DNA of 12,782 nucleotides from a virus (Duplodnaviria; Heunggongvirae; Uroviricota; Caudoviricetes). The position numbers and the translations under genes were made by a program. The stretch lies in IMG/VR virus record IMGVR_UViG_2713896781_000014; one strand, 5' to 3'. The notes beneath the pieces were generated by a model. The model was given only the letters and a program-made list of their open reading frames with translations. It was not told the DNA's origin and did not search any database. Positions 5,989 through 7,779 of the stretch are shown piece by piece (the first letter of the stretch is position 1; every line of letters begins with the position of its first letter).

Positions 5989-6493
5989 CGCGATAACGGT
6001 CAAAAATTATGGCGCTGACACTTTTGTGCCACTGGAGATGACTGTACCTAAGTTCAGGGGAGAAGAACACGTCCGGTGGGATGGTCGGGCCAGATTTAAA
6101 GGGCAGGTCATGGCTCCAGCCTGTACGCTGGCAATGGAGGCTGCCTGGCGGGAAATTGATATGGGAACCACGCCACTCAGGGATTTACTGCCGGTCCAGA
6201 GAATAAATTCCTGTTACGGTTACACCACTGTGATCTTGCAAGTGCAGGAAAGTAGGTCTACACGGTAACGCGAGTGCGTGTAACTTTGATGTCATTCCCG
6301 TAGAAACACCGGACAAATTTTCGCTGACAGGTCATGCAGAAGGTATAAATCTGCAGATTATGGACAATTACGGATATCCGGCAAGAGCCGGAAAAAGCAT
6401 GCCGCCTCTAATTCTCAGTGGAAGATGGACTTGATTATACTCATTGCATTGTCAGAAATAGTTATCCATTAAAGGCTGGCTATTCCAAACAGG

Positions 6494-6521
6494 ATGTTGA
6501 TTACAAAAATGTAATCAACAT
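6494..6521. promoter_or_regulatory. 28-bp perfect palindrome ATGTTGATTACA-AAAA-TGTAATCAACAT, candidate operator
   Basis: Two 12-bp perfectly complementary arms separated by 4 nt, about 165 bp upstream of the binding-protein gene ATG and just upstream of a TATAAT hexamer (about 6550). An AT-rich stem followed by no T-run argues against a terminator. Confidence 0.35.
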
Positions 6522-6685
6522 GTAAGGTTTATACTCTTCAATATGCGTATAATTTTCCTTATTTTGTTGACTTTAAATAACAAGCTATGCACGAGGTAAA
6601 GTCGGATAAGTTTATCTGGATGTAATATATATTATTTGTAGTGTTTATAACTTTATTTCATGATAACCAATAAAAGGAGTTTTTT

Positions 6686-7444
6686 ATGAGGAACATAATG
6701 GCAGGTTTTTTAATATTCCTGTCTTCTGCTGCTTATGCTGATATCAATCTGTATGGTCCTGGTGGCCCGCATACAGCCTTGCTTGATGCAGCCAAACTTT
6801 ATGCCGAAAAAACAGGTATTATAGTGAACGTTCATTACGGCCCACAGAACAAATGGAATGAAGATGCCAAAAAAAATGCAGATATCTTGTTTGGCGCATC
6901 AGAACAATCTGCTCTGGCTATCATTCGGGACCATAAAGACAGCTTCAGTGAAAAAGATATTCAGCCTCTTTATCTGCGAAAAAGTATTTTACTGGTAAAG
7001 AAAGGTAATCCTAAAAATATCCGGAGTATTGACGACCTGACCAGACCTGGGATTGGCGTAATTGTTAATGATGGTGGTGGTACCAGTAATACATCAGGCA
7101 CTGGCGTCTGGGAAGATATTGCCGGACGTAAAGGGAATATAGAAACTGTCGCCGCAATCCGAAAAAATATTATTTTATATGCGCCCAATAGCGGAACTGC
7201 ACGTAAGGCTCTTGAGAATCAGCCTGGAGCAGATGTCTGGATAACCTGGGCTGACTGGGCAGCCAGTAATCCAGAAATTGGTGATGTCGTGGAAATAGCG
7301 CCAGACTACGTGATATGGCGTGATATGAACATTACAGTACGTCAGGATGCAAATGATGAAACCCGTCGATTTGCAGAATGGCTACAAACCGATGAAGCGG
7401 CGCCTGCATTCAAAAAATATGGCTGGACCAGGAAAGGCACTTGA
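6686..7444 (+). CDS. Orphan periplasmic substrate-binding protein, ModA/TupA-like (PBP fold), 252 aa with signal peptide
   Basis: AAGGAG RBS 6 nt upstream. Signal peptide MRNIMAGFLIFLSSAAYA. Colinear resemblance to recalled ModA, including the C-terminal FKKYGWT (ModA: FKRYGFT). No permease or ATPase gene adjacent. Gene and flanks are AT-rich compared with the neighbouring phage genes. Confidence 0.7.
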   Translation: MRNIMAGFLIFLSSAAYADINLYGPGGPHTALLDAAKLYAEKTGIIVNVHYGPQNKWNEDAKKNADILFGASEQSALAIIRDHKDSFSEKDIQPLYLRKSILLVKKGNPKNIRSIDDLTRPGIGVIVNDGGGTSNTSGTGVWEDIAGRKGNIETVAAIRKNIILYAPNSGTARKALENQPGADVWITWADWAASNPEIGDVVEIAPDYVIWRDMNITVRQDANDETRRFAEWLQTDEAAPAFKKYGWTRKGT

Positions 7445-7445
7445 C

Positions 7446-7476
7446 ATCCTCGTCCTTCAGGACGTGGATTCTTTTT
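7446..7476 (+). terminator. Rho-independent terminator after the binding-protein gene
   Basis: Hairpin ATCC-T-CGTCC-TTCA-GGACG-T-GGAT (7446-7469) followed by TCTTTTT. A second GC hairpin ATGCCGC-GCCA-GCGGCAT follows at 7481-7498. Confidence 0.5.
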
Positions 7477-7779
7477 CCGGATGCCGCGCCAGCGGCATGT
7501 AGGGGCAGCTCACAAAACGGAAAAAATTGTACGCTAAGCCTCGCCAGGTGAACTGAATTCATTCCGATATGGGAATTCCCATATCGGGCGAAAACGGTTT
7601 GCTGTAACGGCAGAGTTAAGTAGGATTGCTGCGGGTGCTTGAGGCTATCTGCCTCGGGCATGAACACCAACGGCAGATAGATAAAAGCCCCACCCGACTA
7701 TAAATCGAAGTGAGGCCCCTATATGCTCGTCACATATAGATTGCCTCTTACGGACCGAAAGGTCAAGGAGAAGCAGGCT

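Follow-up and report, generated by a model that had tools for sequence, protein, structure and literature searches.

The 12,782-nt stretch of phage DNA analysed here (IMG/VR record IMGVR_UViG_2713896781_000014; hereafter the window) carries at positions 6686..7444 of its forward strand a gene for a protein of 252 amino acids which we identify as paa (synonym adfO), a known accessory virulence gene of attaching-and-effacing and enterotoxigenic Escherichia coli. The host element is the defective lambda-like prophage PPompW, the counterpart of OI-57/CP-933O. The gene product, Paa, is a member of the AcfC/PEB3 family of binding proteins, and the gene appears to have joined the prophage as cargo. 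For this explanation as a whole, including a contribution of Paa to adherence of the lysogen, we estimate a rough probability of 0.9.

The 1211-bp interval 6270..7480, described in an earlier note on this DNA as an AT-rich cargo cassette with an orphan ModA/TupA-like binding protein, is 100% identical at the DNA level to nine GenBank phage records of the O145:H28 prophage PPompW and 99.9% identical to two more. It is also identical to the corresponding region of O145:H28 chromosomes, where the RefSeq name of the gene is 'paa: AcfC family adhesin Paa'. At the protein level, identity is likewise 100%, both to WP_001449026.1 ('AcfC family adhesin Paa') and to BCI49276.1 ('Paa/adherence factor AdfO'). 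A survey of carriers of the kind proposed in the note, beyond the PPompW phage records, found paa in 623 of 5426 complete E. coli genomes (11%), at 582 chromosomal and 52 plasmid places; the corresponding protein cluster (P0001), which bears the name 'AcfC family adhesin Paa', contains 616 members.

The locus has been described before. PPompW is a defective lambda-like prophage conserved in O145:H28 (PMC8112680). In this lineage, the OI-57 homologue is inserted in ompW and carries adfO (paa) together with ckf, which is annotated as a Hok-family toxin gene (PMC9144400), and in O157:H7 EDL933, adfO is Z2053 on OI-57/CP-933O, with ckf always alongside (PMC8565820; also PMC2749873). Hence, the gene, its name, the prophage, the ckf/hok neighbour and the protein family are all published, and the observation, while correct, is not new. 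In particular, what had been presented as an oddity without an obvious phage role is a named virulence marker at the same locus in O145:H28 and O157:H7 (PMC9144400, PMC8565820, PMC2749873). The limits of the paa module, the pilin remnant and the transposon end described below are not mentioned in the cited papers; these are minor details of a known locus.

The affiliation of Paa is clear from both sequence and structure comparisons. A phmmer search against the sequences of the Protein Data Bank (PDB) retrieves PEB3 (E = 1.2e-81, residues 11-248) and AcfC (E = 3.5e-81, residues 16-248), followed by sulfate-binding proteins at E of about 1e-4. The AlphaFold2 model of Paa, built on 30 homologues (pLDDT 91.2, pTM 0.84), is matched best in Foldseek by AcfC (4jb7; TM 0.90/0.97, root-mean-square deviation 1.2 Å) and PEB3 (TM 0.87-0.88/0.95-0.96). 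The next group consists of ModA proteins (TM about 0.7, up to 0.73/0.79, with 10-19% identity), after which come sulfate-, iron- and sugar-phosphate-binding proteins. The Pfam profile SBP_bac_11 (PF13531) covers Paa residues 20-247 (profile positions 1-226 of 227) with 118.3 bits against a cut-off of 25. Paa thus belongs to the AcfC/PEB3 family, and its model shows a two-lobed class II periplasmic-binding-protein fold. The hidden Markov model (HMM) searches and the structure prediction, both suggested in the earlier note, bear out its reading of a solute-binding fold, with ModA only as the next-nearest fold, and the family found is not a phage family unrelated to solute binding.

Across the 30 homologues (51-87% identity), the invariant residues include YGPGGPH 23-29, GP 52-53, G70/S72/Q74/S75, SNTSGTG 134-140, WED 142-144, NSG 168-170 and W185/T187/W188/D190/W191. 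In the AlphaFold2 model, these lie at strand-to-helix junctions, which usually line the ligand cleft. The YGPGGPH and SNTSGTG(V)WED motifs are also aligned in PEB3 and AcfC. The cleft loop S134-N-T-S-G-T-G140 (codons 7085..7105, forward strand) is aligned with the SNTSGTG of PEB3, so that Paa T136/S137 correspond to PEB3 T138/S139, the numbering being fixed by the K135E chain 3fir; this loop is the only stretch of Paa that resembles sulfate-binding proteins. Min and colleagues reportedly found in 2009 that mutation of the T138/S139 pair abolishes 3-phosphoglycerate binding by PEB3. The ligands in the solved structures of the family are L-phospholactate (PEB3) and D-aspartate (AcfC).

The open reading frame (ORF) is preceded by the Shine-Dalgarno sequence AAGGAG at 6674-6679, 6 nt ahead of the ATG. 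Paa is predicted to carry a cleavable Sec signal peptide, as the earlier note had held: residues 1-18 (6686-6739, forward strand) show the typical pattern of a hydrophobic core and an AYA cleavage motif, the N-terminus reading MRNIMAGFLIFLSSAAYA up to the predicted cleavage site and DINLYGPGGPH beyond it. The signal region has neither a Cys nor a lipobox, and Paa is therefore not a lipoprotein. The crystallised mature chains of PEB3 start at the position aligned to Paa D19. The coding sequence has a GC content of 43.9% (34.8% at third codon positions, GC3), compared to 46-57% (GC3 44-55%) in the neighbouring phage genes, and GC drops to 26% in the 160 bp ahead of the gene (6526-6685). Comparison with the plasmid allele described below gives a dN/dS ratio of 0.07 at dS 0.42, which indicates that the coding sequence has evolved under strong purifying selection.

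A sensitive search against plasmids splits the region into three pieces of separate ancestry, namely, a pilin remnant, the paa module and the end of a Tn3-family transposon. The central piece, the paa module, comprises a leader, the gene and hairpins and spans about 1 kb on the forward strand (~6499-7505), its limits being set by the plasmid search and by MAFFT alignments with two IncF plasmid copies. It recurs as a single gene in IncF plasmids from pig enterotoxigenic E. coli (ETEC) and other sources. In these plasmids, the module is ~86% identical to that of the window at the DNA level, rising to 90.5% in the coding sequence, and the proteins are 93% identical. The plasmid copies adjoin insertion sequence (IS) elements and an IncFII replicon, and the DNA on both sides of them is unrelated to that of the window.

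The AT-rich leader (6499..6685, forward strand; 26% GC), about 190 bp long, is kept in both plasmid copies despite the unrelated DNA further upstream, and contains an invariant TATAAT at 6548-6553. This conservation in unrelated contexts is the best evidence for a promoter of paa's own, and the leader is its presumed site. Beyond the stop codon, two tandem hairpins occupy 7443..7498 on the forward strand (-29.7 kcal/mol, z = -3.4). The first (7443-7471, with its core at 7451-7464) leads into TTCTTTTT (7469-7476) and resembles a terminator, although only a modest one; the second (7481-7498; ATGCCGC-nnnn-GCGGCAT) is kept in the plasmid copies.

On the left, the module is directly fused to a truncated and frameshifted pseudogene of a minor pilin of the chaperone-usher type, papH/sfpH-like (6021..6484, forward strand; 5993-6525 in RefSeq). 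The remnant is ~85% identical at the DNA level to intact plasmid pilin genes, named papH or sfpH in some records. It has lost its 5' end and carries deletions of 10, 1 and 5 bp, in line with the RefSeq label 'frameshifted; internal stop'. A Pfam scan of a hand-stitched translation of the pseudogene gave no match, and the assignment was made through the intact plasmid homologue, which matches Fimbrial (PF00419) and belongs to a chaperone-usher operon that also encodes a PapB-like regulator and a chaperone. The remnant belongs to the imported DNA and not to the promoter of paa. For the AT-rich promoter flank that the earlier note saw in its interval, this means that the leader qualifies with its 26% GC, whereas the left 215 bp (6270-6484) are pilin pseudogene. 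The junction between remnant and module is spanned by a perfect 12-bp inverted repeat with a 4-nt spacer, ATGTTGATTACA-aaaa-TGTAATCAACAT (6494..6521), of which only the inner 6-bp core ATTACA/TGTAAT is common to the plasmid copies; the repeat may serve to bind a protein or may simply have arisen when the two pieces were fused.

On the right, positions 7502..7538 (forward strand) form a solo terminal inverted repeat of a Tn3-family transposon, with ~88-95% matches to the ends of plasmid Tn3-family elements and homology extending only to ~7549; we take it to resemble the repeats of the Tn21/Tn501 type. In NZ_CP024227, a Tn3-family transposase gene runs towards the match, which overlaps the gene's 3' end; this implies that the outer GGGG end of the repeat abuts the paa module and that the body of the element, on the right side, has been lost. 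No second, inverted copy of the repeat was found in the window, where the best other match is 20/38; consequently, the module does not lie inside a recognisable transposon here. Generic homology to the hokD locus resumes only at ~7591-7614.

Overall, the deviant composition, the plasmid-borne copy of the module, the pilin remnant and the Tn3-family repeat at the edges support the view that paa was acquired apart from the phage backbone, as the earlier note had proposed, and the cargo looks like plasmid-derived DNA. Further features of this region were observed. The ~50-bp stretch between the Tn3 end and the hok-locus homology contains a perfect 24-bp palindrome, CCGATATGGGAA/TTCCCATATCGG (7564-7587). 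EcoRI sites are present at 7556-7561 and 7573-7578, the second forming the centre of the palindrome, and its 10-mer GATATGGGAA recurs at 6158-6167 inside the pilin remnant. In the E. albertii plasmid NZ_CP117571, the paa homologue (5001-7112) matches in two segments separated by an IS481-family transposase gene and is apparently disrupted.

What Paa does is suggested by work on the gene and its relatives. In porcine enteropathogenic E. coli (EPEC), paa contributes to the formation of attaching-and-effacing lesions, and the gene is located on OI-57 (PMC2749873, citing Batisson 2003). An adfO mutant of enterohaemorrhagic E. coli shows poor adherence to HeLa cells and reduced secretion of several proteins (PMC8565820, citing Ho 2008). 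The periplasmic protein AcfC binds heparin, chondroitin sulfate and mucin, and affects mucin chemotaxis and intestinal distribution, but is not needed for adhesion to cultured cells (PMC5976639). The idea of a surface-modifying, receptor or sensor function, one of several raised in the earlier note, matches what the literature proposes for the AcfC/PEB3/Paa family (PMC8565820, PMC5976639).

In the scheme that we favour, paa would be expressed in the lysogen from a promoter in its own AT-rich leader; upon induction, it could also be read from the early-right transcript of the phage, because it is codirectional with cro, O, P and Q. Paa would be exported to the periplasm or the cell surface, where its cleft might bind a small anionic group of a host-derived molecule, and ligand binding would promote adherence and colonisation by the lysogen. 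The literature speaks of an adhesin, but the effect may be indirect, via sensing or uptake of the ligand.

Several points weigh against this scheme. The mechanism is unsettled in the literature, and the periplasmic, non-adhesive AcfC sits badly with the label 'adhesin' (PMC5976639); the cited papers report no ligand of Paa itself. With respect to expression, a scan of 5800-8100 for the sigma-70 consensus yields no more sites than chance (5 versus 4.0 +/- 2.3 in shuffled sequences), and the only forward-strand hit within 6270..7480 (6412-6441) falls inside the pilin pseudogene. In our own scan, the conserved leader has a perfect -10 but no -35 element, and hence no good -35/-10 pair. A 6-bp deletion weakens the first hairpin in the plasmid alleles, so that it is not conserved there. 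Thus, of the promoter and terminator claimed for the gene in the earlier note, the conserved AT-rich leader and the hairpins stand, whereas a sigma-70 consensus is missing and the first hairpin is moderate. As for the insertion, no prophage with an empty site was found: when the join of 5500-5990 and 7540-7826 was compared with the 5426 E. coli genomes, none covered at least 80% of it. Two prophages that lack paa but have the DUF1627 gene found upstream of it in the window are mosaic beyond that gene, and with no clean empty site found, the insertion event cannot be reconstructed.

The strongest competitor concerns the mechanism and not the gene: Paa might be no adhesin but a periplasmic protein that senses or takes up host-derived phospho-, sulfo- or carboxylate compounds together with a partner encoded by its bacterial host (chemoreceptor, sensor kinase or ATP-binding cassette (ABC) permease), so that its effect on adherence is indirect. 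We consider this a genuine possibility, albeit one with the odds somewhat against it. Paa has the fold and the invariant cleft loop of a ligand-binding protein; AcfC, periplasmic and dispensable for adhesion to cells, affects mucin chemotaxis (PMC5976639); transport of 3-phosphoglycerate is the role assigned to PEB3 (PMC12469816); and the altered secretion of other proteins in the adfO mutant (PMC8565820) looks regulatory. On the other hand, no partner was found in any context examined, neither the window nor the plasmid contexts have an acfB-like chemoreceptor gene beside paa, in contrast to acfC, which lies downstream of acfB (PMC5976639), and the adhesin label is reported to have come from anti-adhesion phenotypes (PMC2749873, PMC8565820).

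Genomic contexts bear on the question of a partner. The earlier note rightly described the gene as lacking transporter components: there is no permease or ATPase ORF anywhere in the window, and none lies next to paa in the two IncF plasmids. Similarly, no free permease/ATPase pair adjoins the homologue in any of five loci from other genera (Edwardsiella, Enterobacter, Campylobacter, Vibrio and Francisella), suggesting that a partner, if Paa is a sensor, is encoded elsewhere. In Edwardsiella and Enterobacter, the homologue is a stand-alone chromosomal gene with long intergenic regions, and the nearby ABC operons own their binding proteins; the Campylobacter homologue adjoins cdt genes, the one from Francisella stands alone, and that of the Vibrio cholerae isolate GCA_050875945.1 lies in a toxT/tcp-type island. 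Therefore, a missing transporter partner is not unusual for the AcfC/PEB3/Paa family. The V. cholerae gene (5001-5750) encodes an AcfC-family protein 53% identical to Paa and is located right after genes for a ToxT-like regulator and type IV pilus/type II secretion system-type proteins, ahead of a gene for a TagA/StcE-like mucinase.

A more speculative combination, in which Paa is a sensor spread by phages and plasmids that switches on adherence and secretion through a chromosomal partner, and in which the ~1-kb cassette (6499-7505) is itself mobilised by Tn3-family or IS elements, is in our view rather doubtful when both parts are taken together.

The proposal of the earlier note that the protein is of the molybdate/tungstate-binding type and might scavenge oxyanions for the lysogen fares far worse, and we regard it as highly improbable. 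In its favour are the Pfam SBP_bac_11 match, the position of ModA proteins as the nearest structural neighbours after AcfC and PEB3, and weak local HMM matches to modA and sulfate-binding models. However, the ModA equivalog model TIGR01256 scores only 18.3 bits against a cut-off of 62.5, and the models NF002920, NF002918 and NF007958 score 12-18 bits against cut-offs of 253-470. No NCBIfam tungstate model (TupA/WtpA) matches at E <= 1, identity to the solved ModA proteins is low at 10-19%, or 12-19% within the 25 best structural matches, the 12.8-kb window and the annotated records contain no modB/modC-like genes, and the ligands of the solved family members are L-phospholactate and D-aspartate. 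'ModA/TupA-like' is accordingly fair for the fold and wrong for the family. WtpA structures rank 41st or lower in Foldseek (TM 0.64-0.65/0.56-0.57, 11% identity), and models of sulfate/thiosulfate-binding proteins (Sbp/CysP) reach 19-22.6 bits against cut-offs of 155-308, with the match confined to residues 93-146 round the anion loop.

Finally, the notion that the gene is a non-functional relic left in the prophage from a broken host ABC operon, which the earlier note had itself raised as a way in which it could be wrong, can be dismissed as next to impossible, since, for all the decay of the flanks (pilin pseudogene, solo transposon end) and of PPompW overall (PMC8112680), the ORF is intact with a good Shine-Dalgarno sequence and the low dN/dS given above, the single-gene module is shared with plasmids and found in 11% of the complete E. 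coli genomes, the homologues examined in five other genera have no linked free transporter, and mutant phenotypes are reported (PMC8565820, PMC2749873).

The window as a whole represents the early-right part of a lambdoid prophage, as read from the ORFs and the annotated records. A cI-like repressor gene on the reverse strand is followed by cro-like and YdaT-like genes and then, left of the paa region, by a DnaT-like (O-like) replication gene, a P-like gene and a DUF1627 gene. To the right are hok/sok, DUF968, rusA and the Q antiterminator gene, and, right of Q, three tRNA genes and an ISEc20 insertion. The paa gene is accordingly placed after the O-like, P-like and DUF1627 genes and before the sok RNA (7633-7782; Rfam RF01794, 103.9 bits) and hokD (from 7780), confirming the location between the replication module and hok given in the earlier note. 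The hok/sok type I toxin-antitoxin locus (7633..7935, forward strand), whose hokD gene is known as ckf in the OI-57 literature, lies outside the paa module. The window contains two runs of N, 491-545 (55 bases) and 7827-7893 (67 bases), the latter hiding most of the hokD coding sequence, which the identical RefSeq record shows to be intact.

Between the DUF1627 gene and the pilin remnant, a 54-amino-acid ORF (5824-5988) matches phrog_30109 (unknown function). Among the genomes listed, only the five that cover the left flank in full match this ORF and the rest of the flank at >=99%, and those prophages examined that have the DUF1627 gene without paa diverge ahead of the ORF. Downstream of Q, where lysis genes would be expected, there are tRNA genes for Met/Ile-CAT, Lys-TTT and Arg-TCT (11013-11253), counted as three by ARAGORN and the phage record and as two by RefSeq and Rfam. 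Directly beyond them is the transposase gene of ISEc20, an IS110-family element (11368-12564, reverse strand). The lysis cassette of PPompW was lost by IS-mediated deletion (PMC8112680), and the presence of ISEc20 and the tRNA genes in place of lysis genes fits that account.

The correct annotation of the gene matters because paa/adfO is used as a risk marker for pathogenic E. coli (Shiga toxin-producing E. coli, EPEC and porcine ETEC). In PHROGs, Paa belongs to phrog_11834 (E = 4e-176), annotated as 'unknown function' although the protein is a named virulence factor, a gap that could mislead phage-centred pipelines. To the published picture, the present analysis adds the limits of the module shared by plasmids and prophage, the pilin and Tn3-end debris that points to a plasmid origin, and the absence of a transporter in five genera.

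Compared with known systems, the window gene is the same gene as Paa/AdfO (Z2053): the DNA is 99.9-100% identical to the O145:H28 and O157:H7 loci, with the same neighbours, including hokD (ckf), and there is no sequence-level difference from the gene of the porcine attaching-effacing associated protein, from which the name Paa derives. The acfC gene belongs to the Vibrio pathogenicity island, where ToxT controls it and the chemoreceptor-like acfB precedes it in the operon (PMC5976639), whereas paa is phage- or plasmid-borne and has no acfB-like neighbour. AcfC of V. cholerae (4jb7) is 52% identical to Paa in the structural alignment and shares with it the SNTSGTxVWED loop, a signal peptide and the lack of a dedicated ABC transporter. 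PEB3 of C. jejuni (2hxw, 3fj7, 3fjg, 3fir) is a chromosomal N-glycoprotein, in contrast to the mobile-element-borne paa; the position of its K135 is taken by T133 in Paa, and to our knowledge, E. coli has no glycosylation system matching that of PEB3. PEB3 is described as a transport protein for 3-phosphoglycerate and similar phosphates, regulated by BumSR (PMC12469816). With ModA (e.g. 1wod), Paa has in common a class II fold of similar size (TM ~0.71/0.77) and the Pfam family SBP_bac_11, but the two differ in sequence (10-19% identity, with the modA HMM far under its cut-off), in the missing modBC genes and in the organic anions bound by AcfC and PEB3.

Lambdoid prophages are known to carry morons, such as bor and lom of lambda, or stx downstream of Q. 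Like these, paa has a deviant composition and a leader and hairpin of its own, sits between phage modules and would benefit the lysogen and not the phage; position, composition and hairpin are seen directly, and the promoter is presumed from the conservation of the leader. The paa cassette differs from these morons in that plasmid and transposon debris is still visible around it and that the module also circulates on IncF plasmids.

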